Translations under genes and position numbers: made by a program
Shown: piece by piece, positions 1 to 25,701 of the stretch
Layout: every line of letters starts with the position of its first letter
How positions within the stretch are numbered: position 1 is the stretch's first letter
Source of the DNA: Acidobacteriota bacterium
Lineage (GTDB): Bacteria > Acidobacteriota > JAAYUB01
Assembly: GCA_017996395.1 (NCBI GenBank)
Contig: JAGOHA010000003.1
Coordinates: 20,427 to 84,426, forward strand
DNA length: 64,000 bases
Direction of reading: 5' to 3'
Notes under the pieces: generated by a model
Databases searched by the model: none
Told to the model about the DNA's origin: nothing
Seen by the model: the letters and a program-made list of their open reading frames with translations, nothing else

Positions 1-853
1 GAATGCCGGCCCCCTCATCCTCGACCGCAAACCGGATTCCGTCCGGTTGTTGACTCATTTCCACGCAGACGCGGCCGTTTGCGGGCGACGCCTGGATTGC
101 GTTCTGCACCAGGTTGACCAACGCCTGACGGAGGCGATCCGGATCAAAACGTGCCCGCAGCTGCTCCGGCGCCGCATAGTCCAGCCGGACACCGCGCTCC
201 GCGGCTTGTGCCGCCAGCACGCCCATTGTCTCGCGAACCACCTCCGTGAGATCTGAGGAGAGTGGCGCCAGGTTGAGCGGACGGTGAAGGTCCAGGAAGT
301 CTTCCATCACGCGAGCCAGACGACGGATCTCGCGGTTGAGTATGTCGAAGAAAGGCCGCCGGGGATGATCGACCGGATAATCCTCCGCCAGGATTTCCGC
401 GGCACCCTGGATCGAGCCGAGCGGGGTCCTCACCTCATGGGCAATCCCGGCCGCCGTGCGACCGGCGGTGGCGAGCCGCTCCGCTGTCACCAATTCCTTC
501 TCCAGCGCTTCCTTGTGACGGCGCTGCCGCTCCCCCTGGGTGACGATGAATCCCATCAGCGTGCCGATGCCGAAATAAAACACGATTTCAACGACTTCCG
601 GATTTTCCCAGAGCGAACATTCCATTCCGAAGACCAGCGGGAGAACAGCCAGCGAAATGGCCGCTGCGGTCAGCACCCCACCCCACAGGCCGAACCAGAG
701 CGCGCCTAGGATCACGGGGATATAGCACAGGCGCCGGTGAATCAGATGCATGGCATGGAAAAAGCCGGCATGCGGCAGCAGATAATGGATGGAAACGGTC
801 GTGGCCAGAACGCCCAGCACGATGATCAGTCGGATTGCTTTGCCTGACATCAT
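1..853 (-). CDS. Sensor histidine kinase; the C-terminus runs off the window edge
   Basis: Minus-strand translation from the tandem ATG-ATG at 853..848 gives MMSGKAIRLI..., about 3 TM helices, an H-box 'AHEVRTPLGSIQGAAEIL', then an HATPase region (LVNLVQNAIQASP...GIRFAVEDEGAGI). The ORF is open to position 1. Confidence 0.8.
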   Translation of the reverse strand, partial: MMSGKAIRLIIVLGVLATTVSIHYLLPHAGFFHAMHLIHRRLCYIPVILGALWFGLWGGVLTAAAISLAVLPLVFGMECSLWENPEVVEIVFYFGIGTLMGFIVTQGERQRRHKEALEKELVTAERLATAGRTAAGIAHEVRTPLGSIQGAAEILAEDYPVDHPRRPFFDILNREIRRLARVMEDFLDLHRPLNLAPLSSDLTEVVRETMGVLAAQAAERGVRLDYAAPEQLRARFDPDRLRQALVNLVQNAIQASPANGRVCVEMSQQPDGIRFAVEDEGAGI

Positions 854-1041
854 GTCGCCTCACACCGAGTTGATCTCAAATACCGCAATAACGTCAGATG
901 ATGAATATTATTGATCAGATTGAAGAATAGTCTACACATTTCGTCAGGTAGCCGCACATGCAAATCAGACATGATTACCGTATTCCATTATTAATAAAAG
1001 CGTTATCGTTGTTTAAATAGCAAACTGGCCTTTTCGCTGTG

Positions 1042-1062
1042 TTTGGCACGGTGCGTGCCAAA
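1042..1062. promoter_or_regulatory. Perfect inverted repeat TTTGGCACG-GTG-CGTGCCAAA; candidate operator in the divergent HK / Cys-rich-protein intergenic region
   Basis: A 9-3-9 perfect palindrome read directly in an unusually AT-rich 290-bp intergenic region (854..1143), about 80 bp upstream of the 1144 start codon. Confidence 0.45.
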
Positions 1063-1143
1063 TGGATGATGTCTGCAGTTTGATGCCGACAGATTAGATT
1101 CGAAGAGCATGAGTCCAAGTTAAATTTATAGGAGGATATCTCA

Positions 1144-1632
1144 ATGCGTAAAAATCTCATCGTGCTCGGTCTGACCATCGCCGTAGCTGCATGGCTGACC
1201 GGTGGCCTGCTGGCTCAGGAAACAGCTACCCAAGGTGTGAGCACATCAGGCGATGCCGTCAAGACCGATGTCAAGTGCAAGTGTCCCGATTGCAAGTGCA
1301 CGGATTGCACGTGCGATAAGTGCAAGTGCGTGGAGTGCAAGTGCCACCCCTGCAAATGCGCCGACTGCAAGTGTGAGAAATGCAAAAGCGGTGACGGCAA
1401 ATGCGAACACGCCAAGACCGCCTGCTGCATGACCGCCAACGCCCAGTGCGCCCAGGACAAGGCCGCGTGCGGTAAGGCTGCCGTTGCCAAGTGTGCGATC
1501 GACAAGGCCGCCTGCTGCAAGACTGACGCTGGCAAGTGCGCGCACGACAAGGTCGCCTGCAAAGCCGGCGAGTGCAAGTGCGCCAAGGACAAAACAAAAC
1601 CAGCCGCACCTCAGGCGGAACCCCTGAAGTAG
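1144..1632 (+). CDS. Secreted Cys/Lys-rich tandem-repeat protein, metallothionein-like (signal peptide + CKC hexapeptide repeats + 15-aa DKAAC repeats)
   Basis: GGAGGA RBS 7 nt upstream. N-terminal signal peptide MRKNLIVLGLTIAVAAWLTGGLLAQE. 29 Cys in 162 aa: KCKCPDCKCTDCTCDKCKCVECKCHPCKCADCKCEKCK, then CCMTANAQCAQDKAACGK...DKAACCK...DKVACKAGECKCAK. Rho-independent terminator downstream. Confidence 0.7.
   Translation: MRKNLIVLGLTIAVAAWLTGGLLAQETATQGVSTSGDAVKTDVKCKCPDCKCTDCTCDKCKCVECKCHPCKCADCKCEKCKSGDGKCEHAKTACCMTANAQCAQDKAACGKAAVAKCAIDKAACCKTDAGKCAHDKVACKAGECKCAKDKTKPAAPQAEPLK
1271..1600 (+). repeat. Intragenic tandem DNA repeats (about 18-bp 'tgcaagtgc'-type units at 1271..1390; three 45-bp units at about 1453..1590)
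   Basis: 'tgcaagtgc' and 'tgcaaatgc' recur with 18-nt periodicity. 'gacaaggccgc(g/c)tgc' recurs with 45-nt periodicity. Confidence 0.6.
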
Positions 1633-1670
1633 CGTTTAACTGAAATCCCATCCTGTCGACGAATCCGATC

Positions 1671-1704
1671 GGGCACTCCATTGCGGAGTGCCTGATTTAT
1701 TTTG
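1671..1704 (+). terminator. Rho-independent terminator after the Cys-rich protein gene
   Basis: GGGCACTCC-attgc-GGAGTGCC hairpin followed by TGATTTATTTT. Confidence 0.6.
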
Positions 1705-1792
1705 GGGAGCCGGTGACTGTCCGGATCAAAAGGATGTGAATCGTCCACAGACTGGTGCCCCGGCTGCGTCCCCCCAGCCTGGGTAGTTGCGA

Positions 1793-2608
1793 CTATTTCT
1801 TATGCAGCGACCGGAATACACCGCTGAATGAAGGGAAATCGTAATACAAGGCTCCGCCCGATTCGATGGTGAGCCAATGGAGGGCGGTCAGGCCGAGACT
1901 GTCCAGCATCAGATCCCGGTTGATCTGGCGGTTTTGGAAGTAGCGCATGTCACCGGTGAAAAACGAGGAACCGGTTCGGTCGTCTTCGGCGAAGAGGTCC
2001 TTCTCGGTGTTTTTCCGCACGTAAAAACCATACAATCGGATCTTGTTTTCCTTCAGATATCTGGTCAGCTTGGCTAACGGTTCGTATCGCTTGGGGTCGA
2101 AATCCTGCTGGTCCATGATCACCGGTTTCTCCACCGCCGTGATGACGGACGGTTTGATGTTCACGTGTTTATCCACGTTGGAACCTTCGAGCTGCATGCT
2201 CTGAAACATGGCCAAACAGCGGCAGTTGCTGATGAAAAAGACCGGCTGATCCTGGATCCGCCAATGCGCGAGGATGGCCAGCAGATCCTTGAACGGCACC
2301 GCATTCTGGTTGGCGGCCAGGAAATCCATTCCCTTTGCCGGCCAGTCCAGTTCCCCGGCCTTCCCGTGCCGCACCGGGTAGACCGTGTTACCGAAGAATC
2401 CGAAGATGCTCACCTGGCAATCCGAAGGCAGTCGCTTGAGCAGTTCCGCAAACCCCTTGTTGAAATTCAACGAGGTCATCGCGGGATCCGCATCCTGTTG
2501 GATGACAAAAGTGAGGCGTTTGGGTGCGGTCAGATCCCCGGCCGCCGCCCACCCGGCACAAACCGCCAGAGCCAGCATGACGCAACATGTCCATCGGTGC
2601 ATAGCCAA
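1793..2608 (-). CDS. Hypothetical secreted protein (signal peptide); lower GC than surroundings
   Basis: N-terminus MAMHRWTCCVMLALAVCAGWAAAG is signal-peptide-like. Coherent 271-aa ORF with no recognisable catalytic motif. Confidence 0.5.
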   Translation of the reverse strand: MAMHRWTCCVMLALAVCAGWAAAGDLTAPKRLTFVIQQDADPAMTSLNFNKGFAELLKRLPSDCQVSIFGFFGNTVYPVRHGKAGELDWPAKGMDFLAANQNAVPFKDLLAILAHWRIQDQPVFFISNCRCLAMFQSMQLEGSNVDKHVNIKPSVITAVEKPVIMDQQDFDPKRYEPLAKLTRYLKENKIRLYGFYVRKNTEKDLFAEDDRTGSSFFTGDMRYFQNRQINRDLMLDSLGLTALHWLTIESGGALYYDFPSFSGVFRSLHKK

Positions 2609-2722
2609 ACCCCCATACAGTGTCTCTCGATATTAAACGAGATCGGACAGCCAGTTGTTTAAACCGAATGGTCGATTTTTCCCAATTCGAGCACCTACTG
2701 GGTAAATGTGATGGCGGAAAGG

Positions 2723-3616
2723 TCATGCCGGTTGGGCGGAAGCCAGGCTGCGCTGCCACACGACGCCGGCCATGATAAATACTAATCCCACCACGGTGGA
2801 GCCGAGGATGGGTTCGCCCACCACAAAATGAATCAGGGCCAGGGAGATGAACGGGCACAGGAGAATGAGATTGGATACACGGGCCGTGTTTTCGGATAGC
2901 TGCAGCGCCTTCATCCAGCATACATAGGCCACGCCCATCTCGAACAGACCCAGATAAATAGCGCCGGCCCACCCGGTCCAAGATCCGTTCACGGTTTGGG
3001 GAAACAGCAGAACGGCCGCCAGGCAATACCCGGTGCCGCAGATGAAATTCGCGGCAAGCTTGATGAGCTCGTCACGCGTATCTTTTACATTGTAGATCCA
3101 GTACAGGGCCCACACCACGGTGCTGGCCAGAGCCAGGAAGACTCCGAACGGATCAGACAACCGCACCTGGTGCCACTGCCCGTGGGTGGCGATGATCGTC
3201 ACGCCCAGGTAACTGACCAGGATCGCTCCGAGACTGGCCCAGCGCAGGCGCTGGCCCAGCAGCGGAACGGATAAAATGACGATGGCGATGGTCCAGGTCT
3301 GGTTGAGTGGCTGAGCTTCCTGGGCGGGAAGCAGTTCGTAGGATTTGAGCACCACCGCGTAGTAGAGGAACGGATTCAGGAAACCGAGGGTAGCGGCGCG
3401 CAGCCAATTTCGCCCCGAAATTCGGCCCAACTCGCCCAGGCGTCCCTGAAACGCCAGCGCAGCCAGAAGGAAAACCGTGGATGTGAGGGCGGCCCCGAGC
3501 AGCATCGGGTAGATCCCGAGGCTGCGCAAGGTCAGCTTGAATACGGTCGCCACTGTGGACCACATGAGGACGGTGGCTGAGGCGAACATATAGGCGCGCT
3601 GTTGATTGTTCATCAC
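2723..3616 (-). CDS. EamA/DMT-family transporter (10 TM, two EamA halves)
   Basis: Polytopic hydrophobic profile; paired-repeat architecture typical of DMT permeases. Confidence 0.6.
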   Translation of the reverse strand: MMNNQQRAYMFASATVLMWSTVATVFKLTLRSLGIYPMLLGAALTSTVFLLAALAFQGRLGELGRISGRNWLRAATLGFLNPFLYYAVVLKSYELLPAQEAQPLNQTWTIAIVILSVPLLGQRLRWASLGAILVSYLGVTIIATHGQWHQVRLSDPFGVFLALASTVVWALYWIYNVKDTRDELIKLAANFICGTGYCLAAVLLFPQTVNGSWTGWAGAIYLGLFEMGVAYVCWMKALQLSENTARVSNLILLCPFISLALIHFVVGEPILGSTVVGLVFIMAGVVWQRSLASAQPA

Positions 3617-3853
3617 TCTCCGGACGGCGATCCCGGCATGGCGTCCAGAACGCGTGTCCCCGGTTCATTTCGAATGAAAACCGCTGCGGGACTTTTAGCT
3701 GTCGGGCACCATGTGAATAGTATCCCCGTCAAGGCCCGCAGGTTCTTATATCACACACCGAACGTTTGAAAGCAAAACACTCGGACCTAGGATTCCACAG
3801 GGTTCAACGTGCCGTTGAGCGGATCTTGGATACAGATGGGTTTCTGGTGTACC

Positions 3854-5590
3854 ATGCAATCCGTGGCAAACAGGGTCCGAATTTCCACTATACCAATCAG
3901 ATGGAGCATCACCCTGCCCCTGGCGGCGGGCATCCTGCTGATGGTGCCCCTCCTGCAGGGCATTCCGTTGTCCCATGATCTGCATATCCACCTGGCCATG
4001 GTGGATCAATTCCAGGAGAGTCTGGCCGAAGGTAATGTGTATCCTCGCTGGCTGGCCGATTTCAACGAGGGCTATGGCGCCCCCACCATGATTTTCTATC
4101 CCCCCGGTTTGTTCTACTGCGCCAGCTTTGCGGCGGGATTATGCGGTGGTAACATCTTGGTCGGCCTCTATCTGATCCTGACACTCCTGACAATCGTCGG
4201 ATTCGCCGGGGTGTACCGGCTGCTGTCGGAACCGGCCGGGCCGTGGGCGGCGGCCGGCGTCGCATTCGCCTTGGTGGCTCCATTCCGCGTATTTGAGCTT
4301 CATGCTGCCGGTTTGTTCCCCGCTTACGCGGCCGGCTGTATGTTTCCCTGGTCCCTGGATTCTCTTCGGCGCATTGCGGCTGAACCTACCGGCGGAGGCT
4401 GGCTGAGCCGGCCCGTTCAGGGTTGGGCGGTTTCCGTAGCAGTTATGCTGCTCCTGAACCTGCCGTTCACCGTGTTGGCGATGACGCTGGTGTCTGCTTG
4501 GCTCGTTTTCGAGACCGTGAGAAGCCGCCGGTTGGACACGCTGATCCGGGTGACCGCCGGAGCCGCGGTAGCCCTGGCAATCTCGGCCGTTTATCTGTTG
4601 CCCGCGCTGGCTGAACGGCACCTCGTGACGCTGCCACAGGCCGGGCAAAACGTCTATGCGGGCAATTTTCTCTTCATGCCACCCGGCACGTGGGCGGATC
4701 CCGCACTCCAGCACCTGTTCCAACGCATGGCGCTGTTTCCTCTGGCGTTGGCAGTCGTGGGATTGGTGGTGATACTGGCGATGAAACGGGGTTTCACCGA
4801 ATCGGTCCAATCGCCGTTCAGCGGCCTCCTCCAGCTCGCCTCGTTGATCGCCGTCGGGGCGGTTTTCCTGTCCTCGCCCGCATCCGGGTGGCTGTGGGCG
4901 GGGATTCCCGCCCTGGCAACCCTCCAGCTCCCGTGGCGGTTGCTGGACCATCTCGCCGCGCCCTGCAGCATCATCACCACTATGGCGATGGCTGCGGTGT
5001 GGCGGTCCAGGGTCCGTTACGGCTGGGTGCGGTATGCTTTTGCCGGCTTATGCCTGGTTCTGACCCTGCTGATGAGCATGCTCAGTTTGTCTTGCATCCG
5101 AATGAACGGGTTTGCGCCACCTCACGATATCCTCGAGCAAGTTGCCGCATTCCGGCGGCTGCCGGGCGATTATCCACCCCAAGGTTCCGAGCTCACACCG
5201 CAGCGCGCGGATGACGCCCTGGTGACCGTGGCTCGCGGGCTGATCAGCGGGAAAGTCATCGCATGGGAAGCCGAGCGCCGACGAATCGACATCCAGGCGG
5301 AGACACCCGGCGCCATCGCGTTGCGCACCTGGTACTATCCCGGCTGGTCCGCCCGCGACGAACGGAATGTGACGCTCCCGGTGACCGCGGAGCCGGGCAC
5401 GGGGAAACTCCTCATCGCCGTCCCCGCCGGACGTCATACTTTGGAGATCCGCTTCGGTTCCACACCACTGCGCCTTGCCGCGGTGTGGTTGAGTCTGTTC
5501 GCGGCCCTGGGGTTTGCTGCTGCCTGCATCTGTCCGCATATCTTTCGAAATCAGAAAAAATCCAACTCCGCCCCGCATCCCGGCATCTGA
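3854..5590 (+). CDS. Polytopic membrane protein; YfhO-like / GT-C-superfamily putative glycosyltransferase
   Basis: N-terminal loop motif HDLHIHLAMVDQFQESLAEGNVYPRWLADFNEGYGAPTMIFYPP resembles the YfhO/GT-C first-loop signature. More than 10 TM helices and a C-terminal soluble domain. The track ORF starts at 3809; a likely internal start is M at 3854. Confidence 0.4.
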   Translation: MQSVANRVRISTIPIRWSITLPLAAGILLMVPLLQGIPLSHDLHIHLAMVDQFQESLAEGNVYPRWLADFNEGYGAPTMIFYPPGLFYCASFAAGLCGGNILVGLYLILTLLTIVGFAGVYRLLSEPAGPWAAAGVAFALVAPFRVFELHAAGLFPAYAAGCMFPWSLDSLRRIAAEPTGGGWLSRPVQGWAVSVAVMLLLNLPFTVLAMTLVSAWLVFETVRSRRLDTLIRVTAGAAVALAISAVYLLPALAERHLVTLPQAGQNVYAGNFLFMPPGTWADPALQHLFQRMALFPLALAVVGLVVILAMKRGFTESVQSPFSGLLQLASLIAVGAVFLSSPASGWLWAGIPALATLQLPWRLLDHLAAPCSIITTMAMAAVWRSRVRYGWVRYAFAGLCLVLTLLMSMLSLSCIRMNGFAPPHDILEQVAAFRRLPGDYPPQGSELTPQRADDALVTVARGLISGKVIAWEAERRRIDIQAETPGAIALRTWYYPGWSARDERNVTLPVTAEPGTGKLLIAVPAGRHTLEIRFGSTPLRLAAVWLSLFAALGFAAACICPHIFRNQKKSNSAPHPGI

Positions 5591-5665
5591 TGAGCGGAGA
5601 GTCTGAGCTCACATCCACGGCATCCTAATGAGTGCCGGCTTAGAATGGAACCAGGTGTCGGTGTC

Positions 5666-6355
5666 ATGAAAGCGTGTATGCTGCTCCGAATCGTCGCCAT
5701 CATCTCGGCAGGTTGCCTGTCGATACCTTGGCTTCCAGCGGATCCGCCTGCCGAGGGCACGGCGCCATTGGCCGTGCGCCGGACCGGAGCCTCGGAGTTG
5801 CAGATCCAGCGTGCGGACGGCACCGCGTTCACGATCCGCTTCATGGAGACGGTGATGACCGTGGTCACCAATCCGATCTACCCGCTGGCGGCGGTGTTCA
5901 CGACCGATGAGCCGCCCGGCAGTCCGCTGGTGGTGCCGCCCCAGCCGGTGGCCACTTGTTCGGCATACATCCTGCACACAGTCACCGGTGAATTCGAGCG
6001 GATACCCACAGATGAGACCATGCTGGGCAGCTGGTTTTTCCAGGTGTGGTCACCCGACGGCCACTACGCGGTCATTCTGACCAGTCAATGGGGCGGTTTC
6101 AAGTTATTCCGCGCCGCCGACTGGATCAACAGCGGCGGGCACCTTTGGATCGACTGGCGGAAACCGTGGCGGAGCATGGGCGCCCGCGACACCCCGCCCC
6201 GCGCCGGTGACCCGGCCAAGATCCACCGGTTTATCTCCTGGGAAGGCCCGGCCACGTTTTCCTTCAGCGGATCCTGCTGCGGGACCGAGTTCAGGTACCG
6301 GTTCGATATCGAGCAGGACCGGTTGACGCGCACCGGCCAGCGCGAGCTGCCTTGA
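5666..6355 (+). CDS. Hypothetical lipoprotein
   Basis: MKACMLLRIVAIISAGC has a lipobox-like SAGC. No recognisable domain. Confidence 0.4.
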   Translation: MKACMLLRIVAIISAGCLSIPWLPADPPAEGTAPLAVRRTGASELQIQRADGTAFTIRFMETVMTVVTNPIYPLAAVFTTDEPPGSPLVVPPQPVATCSAYILHTVTGEFERIPTDETMLGSWFFQVWSPDGHYAVILTSQWGGFKLFRAADWINSGGHLWIDWRKPWRSMGARDTPPRAGDPAKIHRFISWEGPATFSFSGSCCGTEFRYRFDIEQDRLTRTGQRELP

Positions 6356-6436
6356 TTTGAGGCCGGGGTGCAGTATTTCGAACGGAAGGCGAGAAACAAA
6401 GCTCCATCCCGGGAAGTATAAAGATCGATAGTCGCT

Positions 6437-7249
6437 ATGAAACCGCGGAGCATCATCCAGATCATCAGCGTCATACTCCTGGCGACACCCGCGCTTCAGG
6501 GGAGCCGTCCGCCCAGCATGATGCTGCATCTGGATGTCGCCCGGATCGAATTGGAAGTCTTCCGGCTGGTGAATTGGGCCCGGGCGGAACGCGGCCTCGA
6601 CCCCTACCGCTACGACGACGGGCTGGCCGACCTGGCCCGGCGGCACTCCGGCAATATGCGGGACTTTCGGTTCTTTTCCCACACCGATCATGAGGCGCGC
6701 ACTCCGGACCAGCGACGCCTGAAGTATTATCCAGAACTCCTGGCCGTCCGCTTCGCTGAGAACATCGCCACCGGATTCGGCACCACCGAGTCCGAAATCG
6801 CGGCCAATCTCATGGAGTCCTGGATGAATTCACCCGGCCACCGGGCGAACATCCTCAGCTCCGACTTCACCCACATCGGCGTCGGGATCGTCCACGCCGC
6901 CGCCACCAAATATTTCGGCACGCAGAATTTCGCCTTCCCCCTCGGCAAACTCACGTCGCCTCTCAAGGCTGATATCCGCTACGGCCAGCGAGTGGAACTT
7001 GAATTTGAATCCATGGGCAATCTGCCCAAGGACAAACTCCGCGTGATCGTCCTGTACCCGGACGCGAACGTAAAAATCGTCCAGGGTGACGGGTCGTACT
7101 ACCTGGGCAAATCGTTCCTGCGCCCCAAGTGGCGGGACGATGTGTTCCGGGCGAGTATCCGCTGCGTGGGCGGCCGGGGCACGTACAAAATCGCCCTGGG
7201 GTCCGACGGAGAATACTACCCGATCTTTATCGAATTCCAGGTGTATTGA
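6437..7249 (+). CDS. Secreted CAP/SCP (PR-1-like) domain protein
   Basis: Signal peptide; motifs MESWMNSPGHRANIL and FTHIGVGIV are typical of the CAP superfamily. Confidence 0.65.
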   Translation: MKPRSIIQIISVILLATPALQGSRPPSMMLHLDVARIELEVFRLVNWARAERGLDPYRYDDGLADLARRHSGNMRDFRFFSHTDHEARTPDQRRLKYYPELLAVRFAENIATGFGTTESEIAANLMESWMNSPGHRANILSSDFTHIGVGIVHAAATKYFGTQNFAFPLGKLTSPLKADIRYGQRVELEFESMGNLPKDKLRVIVLYPDANVKIVQGDGSYYLGKSFLRPKWRDDVFRASIRCVGGRGTYKIALGSDGEYYPIFIEFQVY

Positions 7250-7354
7250 TCCGATGTGATCCGCCGCACACTCCCGCTTGATCACCGTGCTACACTGCTG
7301 CGTTTCGCCGGTTCCTCAGCCGGCCTTGCCTGATTGCATCCTGCTGGAGTGACC

Positions 7355-24346: not shown

Positions 24347-25701
24347 CAGAAAACCTTGAACTGGATCCGCAGGTAGTCCTTTGGATTCTGCCGGACGTCG
24401 TAGATCAGTTTGGCCAGTTCGGCCAGTGCCTGGTTCAGGTTTTCATACAGCTGCCTGTCTTTGAGCAGCTGGCCCATGGTGCCTTCACCCCGGTCGATCT
24501 GTTCCAGAATCTGGCGAATTTTACGAAGCGAATCCCGCGCCTCCTCGAACAGCGTCGGGTCGGTGGACATCCGGCCCAGCGTGCCTTCCCCCTGCTCGAT
24601 CCGCAGGAGCAGGCGATCCACCTTGGCCGACACTTCCCGCAGGTTGTTGTACAGCGCAGGATCATCGACCAGCTTGTTGAGCGTTCCTTGTGACGTGTTG
24701 AGCCGGTTGATGAACTGGTTGAGCTCTTTGGCGGTGGCGGTCAGCTCGTCGTACAGGGCACGGTTATGAACCAGCTGGCCGAAGGTACCCTCGCTGCTGC
24801 GCAGGTCGTCCATGAGCCCGCCCGCCCGCTGAACGGTCACATCCAGGTTCTGGATTGTGGATACCAGCGACCGGTGAAGACTGGTTTCGTTGATGAGCTG
24901 GCCGATGGTGCCTTCGCCGGCGTCCAGCTTGGCCACGATGTTCTTCACGCGGTCCGAGATGTCGCCGAAGTTGGCCATCAGGTCGTTGGCGTTGACCATC
25001 AGCTGCCGGATGGTGGCCTCGTTGACCGCTTCGATGAAGATGTGTCCCTCGGCGGTCCGGCGCGGCTCCTCCGGCAGCCTTCCGATGCTGATATCCACAT
25101 ACTTGTCGCCCAGCAGGCCGATGGAACCGATGCTCACCTCCGAATCGCGCTTGATCCAACCGACGAATTCGTCCTCGATCTGCAGGACCAGTCGGATGCT
25201 CTGGAGATTGCTCCGGGTGGTTTTGAGGTCCTGCCGCGCCGCCGCCTGGTTCTTGCGGAGTCTGGCAAGCCGCTCTTCCTGGAGCAGGATCCCCTCCCGG
25301 ACCTTGTCGGCGTCCGCAGCCTTGGCGGCGGCAAGCGACGCCCGTTCGCGCTCCACCGCCCCTTCCACGTCCCGGACCAGACCGTCGTATCGCTGGACGT
25401 CGGCGATGAGCTGTTGGATCTTTTCGTTCGTGTCCCGGTTGGCTTGCGTGTCCGGCGGGGTCTTCTCCAGTTTAATGTCGTCCACATTGCCGATCTCGAT
25501 GCCGTTGAGCCACACCGGCGCGCCGGCCTTCAAACCGGAGATCTCCGGCAGATAGGTGACCGCATACGATTTGGGGGTGAAGAATCCACGTCCCCCGCTG
25601 ACCCGGACGATCATGAAAATCAGGATGGCGAAGCTGCCGATGACGAAAATGCCGACGCGAAACTCGTGCCAGTTGAATCTCTTCTTGCGCCTTTCCATCA
25701 C
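24346..25701 (-). CDS. mlaD: MCE/MlaD-family protein with five C-terminal helical repeats of about 33 aa
   Basis: N-terminal TM plus MCE domain. Repeating units GEGTIGQL / SEGTFGQL / SQGTLNKL / GEGTLGRM / GEGTMGQL, each followed by xxxLYxxL. Confidence 0.7.
   Translation of the reverse strand: MMERRKKRFNWHEFRVGIFVIGSFAILIFMIVRVSGGRGFFTPKSYAVTYLPEISGLKAGAPVWLNGIEIGNVDDIKLEKTPPDTQANRDTNEKIQQLIADVQRYDGLVRDVEGAVERERASLAAAKAADADKVREGILLQEERLARLRKNQAAARQDLKTTRSNLQSIRLVLQIEDEFVGWIKRDSEVSIGSIGLLGDKYVDISIGRLPEEPRRTAEGHIFIEAVNEATIRQLMVNANDLMANFGDISDRVKNIVAKLDAGEGTIGQLINETSLHRSLVSTIQNLDVTVQRAGGLMDDLRSSEGTFGQLVHNRALYDELTATAKELNQFINRLNTSQGTLNKLVDDPALYNNLREVSAKVDRLLLRIEQGEGTLGRMSTDPTLFEEARDSLRKIRQILEQIDRGEGTMGQLLKDRQLYENLNQALAELAKLIYDVRQNPKDYLRIQFKVF

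Follow-up and report, generated by a model that had tools for sequence, protein, structure and literature searches.

The closest described counterpart of the locus analyzed here is zraP-zraSR of E. coli and Salmonella, in which an operon for a kinase and an NtrC-type sigma-54 activator is divergent from a single target gene, zraP, whose product is a periplasmic metal-binding protein and whose promoter is of the sigma-54 type. The sensor of ZraS is a periplasmic domain. ZraR controls the divergent sigma-54 promoters of both zraP and zraSR (PMC4987338), and the sigma-54 site of E. coli zraP, mapped by ChIP, reads TTGGCACGGAAGATGCA (PMC4591121). Two-component systems divergent from metal-resistance genes are also found with regulators of the OmpR family, e.g. 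CusRS, CopRS and CzcRS. Metal regulators of this family bind direct or inverted repeats beside a sigma-70 promoter. Enhancer-binding proteins normally bind 80-200 bp upstream of the promoter. The canonical form of the NifA site is TGT-N10-ACA, and NtrC is also known to repress glnAp1 and glnLp.

We examined a 64-kb stretch of DNA (the window) from an uncultured Acidobacteriota bacterium. At its left end a gene for a sensor histidine kinase and a gene for a Cys-rich protein diverge from an AT-rich spacer, as had been described earlier from the sequence (Table 1). The original prediction had also reported a perfect 9-3-9 palindrome within the spacer, which is indeed there (TTTGGCACG-GTG-CGTGCCAAA), and had taken it for the operator of a dimeric transcription factor. 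The reading that we prefer, with a probability of about 0.78, takes the palindrome as the sigma-54 (-24/-12) promoter from which the Cys-rich gene is transcribed, part of a ZraPSR-like switch with activator sites upstream.

Table 1. Position of genes and predicted control elements in the window
Feature	Coordinates	Strand	Basis and remarks
Sensor histidine kinase gene, 5' part	1..853	-	Translation; Pfam HisKA and HATPase_c; ATG at 853 or 850
UAS site 1, weaker candidate, TGATGAATATTATTGA	899..914	.	11 of 16 positions of TGTAGAATATTCTACA
Sigma-70-like promoter candidate of the kinase/activator operon, TAGACT-16-AATAAT	907..934	-	Consensus scan; speculative
UAS site 2, main candidate activator site, TGAAGAATAGTCTACA	921..936	.	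Two mismatches to TGTAGAATATTCTACA
Perfect 9-3-9 palindrome, TTTGGCACG-GTG-CGTGCCAAA	1042..1062	+	Read from the sequence
Predicted sigma-54 promoter, TGGCACG-GTGC-GTGCC	1044..1059	+	GG at 1045-1046, GC at 1057-1058
Shine-Dalgarno sequence AGGAGGA of the Cys-rich gene	1130..1136	+	Sequence; kept in the clade alignment
Cys-rich protein gene	1144..1632	+	ORF; 162 aa; signal-peptide-like N-terminus; CKC/CxxC repeats
Intrinsic-terminator-like hairpin with T-run	1667..1707	+	Terminator scan; hairpin at 1667-1697; after the Cys-rich gene

Results

The spacer and the Cys-rich gene

The GC content of the spacer (854-1143) is 40.3%, compared with 62.2% for the whole window. The AT-richness of the spacer is thus confirmed; for the surrounding DNA 65% GC had been given previously. 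The spacer is the lowest-GC 290-bp stretch of the window; six of the 6371 sliding windows are equally low and all six overlap it. At up to three mismatches the palindrome is the sole match to its own sequence in the 64 kb, where 0.03 matches are expected by chance.

The terminator-like hairpin behind the Cys-rich gene suggests that this gene is a single-gene unit. Its product has no match in Pfam, NCBIfam or PDB, and an exhaustive HMMER search among 1.84 billion representatives gave just two related clusters (one by word search). Between strains the length of the protein ranges from 147 to 192 aa through gain or loss of C-x-x-DKAAC-like repeats. By analogy with ZraP, and with the metal-related targets of related systems described below, it is probably a secreted or periplasmic metal-binding protein that would act as a metal buffer. 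It differs from ZraP in that no similarity between the two is detectable, the ZraP/CpxP family being absent from the Pfam and NCBIfam results. The next gene on the right is a 271-aa ORF (1793-2608, minus strand) with a signal-peptide-like start and no Pfam match; in the related species (L011, L012) it likewise adjoins the Cys-rich gene, and an EamA transporter gene is found with it.

The kinase and its response regulator

The kinase gene extends beyond the left edge, and on the source contigs the full kinase has 353 aa; the start at 850 is the form present in most orthologues, with an alternative ATG at 853. The original prediction had placed the response regulator just outside the window and this is where it is found: on the source contigs its gene comes immediately after that of the kinase. 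At least 23 metagenome contigs and one NCBI MAG encode the exact Cys-rich protein, and on all contigs with this protein the kinase is followed by a 446-aa protein composed of Response_reg, Sigma54_activat and HTH_8 domains, which carries a Walker A motif and, at residue 217, the GAFTGA motif that contacts sigma-54. Judged by these domains, the response regulator is an NtrC-type bacterial enhancer-binding protein and not a DNA binder of the OmpR or NarL type. Its NCBIfam matches are to the models for NtrC, AtoC and ZraR, each under its equivalog cut-off (367 bits for ZraR, where the cut-off is 760). The best NCBIfam match of the kinase is ZraS, also below the cut-off (210 bits vs 479), so in contrast to true ZraPSR systems neither protein reaches the ZraS/ZraR equivalog level. 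An Acidobacteriota MAG that comes from an anaerobic membrane bioreactor encodes a kinase 91% identical to that of the window.

Residues 1-125 of the kinase (479-853 of the window, minus strand) form a small membrane-embedded sensor domain. Its motif is LSLHY...H..HRRLCYIPIILGALWFGLRGG, and in the alignment of a large, mostly Acidobacteriota family His23, His36, His39 and Cys43 are invariant. Unlike ZraS, therefore, the kinase of the window has a small sensor with His and Cys residues embedded in the membrane, and this domain may constitute an intramembrane metal-sensing site.

To the left of the window (L001-L010, locus coordinates 1-7300) the activator gene is adjoined by a YHS-domain gene, a DUF302 gene, a TetR regulator gene and an ABC-2/RND-adaptor/OEP efflux cluster. 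Neither sigma-54 nor enhancer motifs were found ahead of the YHS, DUF302, TetR and efflux genes of these contigs.

Conservation of the element

Ten metagenome contigs with an identical Cys-rich protein were fetched (L001-L010), but because their intergenic regions are 100% identical they gave no comparative signal. Since homologues of the Cys-rich protein are so few, the comparative context was taken from the kinase instead. This gave six diverged lineages that carry an orthologous Cys-rich gene (L012/L011, L016, L020, L021, L022 and L024), L012 being the one useful locus from a scan of reference genomes with the kinase. In L012, L016, L020, L021, L022 and L024 the orthologous gene is preceded by the same element. 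The intergenic regions of this clade align poorly except for a few islands. The element reads TTTGGCACGGTGCGTGCCAAA in the window and in L021, TTTGGCATGGTGCGTGCCAAA in L012, TTTGGCATCGTGCGTGCCAAT in L022 and L024, TTTGGCATCGTGCATGCTTAA in L020 and ACTGGCATATGATGTGCGAAT in L016. Comparison of the window with the six lineages shows that TGGCA-N7-TGC is invariant and that the outer arm positions vary; the orientation of the element toward the Cys-rich gene is intact in all lineages.

Three of the nine pairs of the palindrome are inherent to every sigma-54 promoter, as they are made by GCA and TGC in this register. Of the six remaining pairs all are kept in the window and L021, five in L012, and three in each of L022, L020 and L016. 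In L022 and L024 two bases of the left arm have changed and the right arm has not, which leaves the changes uncompensated; L020 has a single compensatory arm change (C:G to T:A). The GG that the element presents in the reverse orientation is lost in L020 (AAGCA) and L016 (TCGCA). Conservation of the palindrome in orthologous regions had been proposed as a check on the operator, and the outcome speaks against it: the dyad symmetry decays, the arm changes are mostly uncompensated, and the sigma-54 core alone is invariant. As far as the aligned sequences go, the pattern agrees with a promoter and disagrees with both a conserved hairpin and an operator bound by a dimer.

The symmetry seen in the window exceeds what promoter function requires: all six of the extra pairs are complementary, where other promoters of the family have about 1-2 on average. 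GCA (-24) and TGC (-12) are reverse complements when aligned in this way, and this, with the habit of the lineage to carry G at -15, accounts for most of the dyad symmetry; the remaining symmetry appears incidental.

Scoring of the predicted promoter

The sigma-54 consensus is TGGCACG-N4-TTGCW, in which the G at -24 and the C at -12 hardly vary (PMC3538637). The predicted promoter matches 14 of 16 consensus positions and has its GG and GC at the canonical 10-bp spacing. Its core, TTGGCACGGTGCGTGCC, and the ChIP-mapped zraP site of E. coli are alike at 13 of 17 positions. The transcription start would be expected near 1070, which would give the Cys-rich gene a 5' UTR of about 74 nt.

Matrix scores are less uniform. 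A matrix of 42 ChIP-mapped sigma-54 sites, which is derived from E. coli and not from the host, gives the element 7.8 bits in the forward and 9.0 bits in the reverse orientation, values in the bottom 2-5% of true E. coli sites. With this matrix the element ranks about 9th in the window, and within its own upstream region it just reaches the 95th percentile of the shuffled null (about 9 bits). The low score is explained by the G at -15, the C at -11 and the GC-rich spacer between the two boxes. A second matrix was made from 11 outward-facing sites of the wider kinase family, all outside the clade of the window; it scores the element at 13.4 and 13.9 bits and ranks it 1st and 3rd among about 128,000 positions of the window, and these values fall within the leave-one-out range of the 11 training sites, a comparison which is partly circular because the training sites had first been chosen by a consensus-based score. 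G at -15 occurs in four of these 11 outward promoters.

An alternative sigma-54 match at 1063-1077 (TGGATGATGTCTGCA) was discarded, its spacing being one base short and its sequence not conserved. No RpoN box was found in the window or in any fetched locus, and it is from the GAFTGA activator only that the presence of rpoN would be deduced. The best match of the E. coli matrix in the whole window, CTGGCACGAGTTTCGCG (25656-25672, minus strand), falls within a 451-aa ORF, at its 5' end, and is probably due to chance, or else an intragenic site of the kind known in E. coli.

The wider kinase family

A scan of metagenomes with the sensor domain of the kinase gave 80 loci. About 15 loci, with kinases 40-55% identical to that of the window, share a common architecture of two sigma-54 motifs and tandem palindromes. 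One sigma-54 motif faces the kinase gene and lies 22-29 nt upstream of its start, the other faces outward ahead of the divergent gene at a position homologous to that of the element in the window, and the tandem 16-bp TGTAGAATATTCTACA palindromes are 19-23 bp apart. The sigma-54 motifs of these relatives score 12-18.6 bits with the E. coli ChIP matrix, where the 95th percentile of shuffled sequences is about 9. Their divergent targets are metal-related: TolC-like OEP efflux genes, HMBD proteins, an HMA P-type ATPase and DUF302. Our literature search met no specific report of a sigma-54/metal-efflux system of this type. With this conserved divergent layout, the earlier proposal that the two-component system controls the Cys-rich gene becomes very likely.

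Candidate activator sites

The palindrome common to the family, TGTAGAATATTCTACA, is of the TGT-N10-ACA type. At up to three mismatches it is present in 20 of 22 family loci, whatever the target gene (perfect in L026, with one mismatch in L018), and in the window it is matched at this level only by UAS site 2, with 0.01 matches expected. As the motif tracks the kinase/activator pair whatever its target is, it is the best candidate for the enhancer. UAS site 1 is less certain in its register, which may be 902-917 instead of 899-914; 22 bp separate its centre from that of site 2, and an AATATT-centred block in it is kept across the clade. From the sequence it is likely that both sites (~899-914 and 921-936) bind the activator. 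Site 2 is centred about 141 bp ahead of the expected start of transcription. In the clade of the window, as in L033 and L038, the outward promoter is offset from the UAS by 118-121 bp. By eye, no convincing IHF site was seen between the UAS and the promoter.

Tandem dyads of this kind, 100-170 bp upstream of a -24/-12 promoter, are in accordance with the UAS of NtrC at glnAp2, of NifA and of GlrR. The NifA site has been cited as TGT-N10-AGA (PMC3538637) and that of GlrR is TGTC-N10-GACA (PMC4987338), and the sites in the window are similar to both in geometry. They differ in their half-sites (TGTAGAAT/ATTCTACA), in signal and in regulon, and they are predicted ones. As in zraPSR the activator site would lie in the shared intergenic region, although here its position is predicted from sequence (PMC4987338, PMC4591121). 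We also considered whether the conserved TAGAAT within the UAS is merely a sigma-70 -10 box, and rejected this explanation because the full 16-bp palindrome is also kept where a kinase-proximal sigma-54 promoter exists.

Promoter of the kinase operon

In more distant relatives the kinase operon has a divergent sigma-54 promoter of its own, as zraSR does, but this is missing in the clade of the window. No kinase-proximal sigma-54 motif was found in the clade, unlike in L017, L026, L027, L030, L031, L034, L035, L038 and L039, and the clade appears to have lost it. The UAS of the clade is 48-86 nt from the ATG of the kinase, about 30 bp closer to the kinase gene than in the relatives. A speculative sigma-70-like promoter for the kinase/activator operon overlaps both UAS sites (Table 1), and its AATAAT hexamer is kept in six of seven clade members. 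The possible overlap of enhancer and sigma-70 promoter recalls NtrC at glnAp1 and glnLp; if this promoter is used, it would permit autorepression in the glnAp1 style.

Discussion

The excess symmetry of the element can be accounted for in other ways than as a by-product of a promoter. One of them keeps sigma-54 but lets the symmetrised element load the polymerase both ways, rightward for the Cys-rich gene and leftward for the kinase/activator operon, in which case it would replace the kinase-proximal promoter of the relatives after its loss in the clade. The reverse score of the element is higher than or about equal to the forward score in the window, L021, L022, L024 and L012, the C at -11, rare in sigma-54 promoters, is just what creates the reverse GG, and the clade of the window, which lacks the proximal motif, has its UAS as little as 48-86 nt from the kinase ATG. 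We nevertheless consider such a dual role unlikely. L020 and L016 have the same gene arrangement and no proximal sigma-54 motif, yet they are without the reverse GG, and as both are absent there the kinase operon must have another promoter in the clade, for which the sigma-70-like sequence offers a candidate. L033, on the other hand, has a symmetric outward element and still retains the proximal motif. A transcript made leftward from the element would, in addition, cross the enhancer and carry a 5' UTR of some 180 nt. The same loci weaken the idea that a symmetric outward promoter goes together with the absence of a kinase-proximal one, L033 having both promoters and L020 and L016 neither. If the dual role were nevertheless true, one enhancer-dependent promoter would serve both genes with positive autoregulation through a 180-nt leader. 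In a limited literature check we met no description of a fully overlapping palindromic bidirectional sigma-54 promoter, and this explanation alone would alter the understanding of sigma-54 regulation, which the promoter reading leaves unchanged.

The operator of a dimeric transcription factor, be it the response regulator or some other repressor or activator, is what an inverted repeat with perfect 9-bp arms around 3 bp, found just once in the window, first calls to mind, and both the symmetry above that of other family promoters and the one compensatory substitution pair in L020 would suit it. The uncompensated left-arm changes of L022 and L024, together with the three of six non-inherent pairs that L020 and L016 hold, are difficult to reconcile with dimer binding, the invariant bases are those of the asymmetric sigma-54 core, and the palindrome that an enhancer-binding regulator would use, far better conserved, is situated at 921-936. 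A motif search over 73 kb of this genome also failed to turn up the element a second time. The response regulator, moreover, is a GAFTGA sigma-54 activator, and the operator proposed originally thus becomes improbable. The same bases can be aligned with a sigma-70 promoter, -35 TTGGCA (1043-1048) and -10 GATGAT (1065-1070), where a consensus scan gives nine of 12 matches for TTGGCA-16-GATGAT; but the 16-bp spacer is suboptimal, three such matches occur in 1.1 kb where 1.0 is expected, the -10 hexamer varies (CATGAA in L012, GATGCC in L016) and the invariant TGC at -12 would be left without explanation, all of which makes this assignment very improbable. The slightest chance we would give to a hairpin in the transcript, i.e. 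an attenuator, a terminator or a protein-binding stem-loop. The element, if transcribed, would have a folding energy of -12 to -14 kcal/mol (z-scores between -2.6 and -4.2), and the C-to-T change in L012 would preserve a G-U pair in the plus-strand RNA. The homologous sequence of L020, however, does not form a hairpin (z = 0.35), there is no T-run after the element and the terminator scan did not report it, Rfam gave no match, and under the sigma-54 model the element is upstream of the start site and hence not transcribed.

The sigma-54 promoter reading, in turn, makes this locus most likely an ordinary ZraPSR-like metal-response switch. It departs from CusRS, CopRS and CzcRS in that its regulator is an AAA+ sigma-54 activator and the repeat that had been noticed is read as the promoter itself. 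From gene content, conservation and motif architecture we infer the following course of events. Sigma-54 RNA polymerase would rest on TGGCACG-N4-GTGC (1044-1059) as a closed complex. The membrane kinase would detect the signal, probably metal, and phosphorylate the NtrC-type activator, which would then assemble on the tandem TGT-N10-ACA sites (~899-914 and 921-936) about 120-165 bp upstream. The intervening AT-rich DNA would loop, ATP hydrolysis would open the promoter, and transcription would begin near 1070 and stop at the terminator (1667-1707).

The promoter reading corrects a plausible annotation, since what looked like a transcription factor operator is reread as a promoter, and it illustrates that a perfect palindrome can stem from the GCA/TGC symmetry built into sigma-54 promoters. 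It also provides a predicted enhancer motif, TGTAGAATATTCTACA, for uncharacterised pairs of membrane-sensor kinases and sigma-54 activators beside metal-efflux genes, and it predicts a regulon member transcribed as a single gene, namely the orphan secreted Cys-rich protein of this Acidobacteriota lineage from anaerobic digesters. The promoter/enhancer pair could act as a metal-responsive reporter.

Among the family loci, one (L018:4889-5000, JGI Ga0071344_1000800) has its kinase divergent from an HMA P-type ATPase gene with 112 bp between them. A near-perfect enhancer palindrome, TGTGGAATATTCTACA, lies there 12 bp from TTGGCAC...GGGC, in which the GC is one base too distant, an arrangement that is atypical for a sigma-54 promoter.
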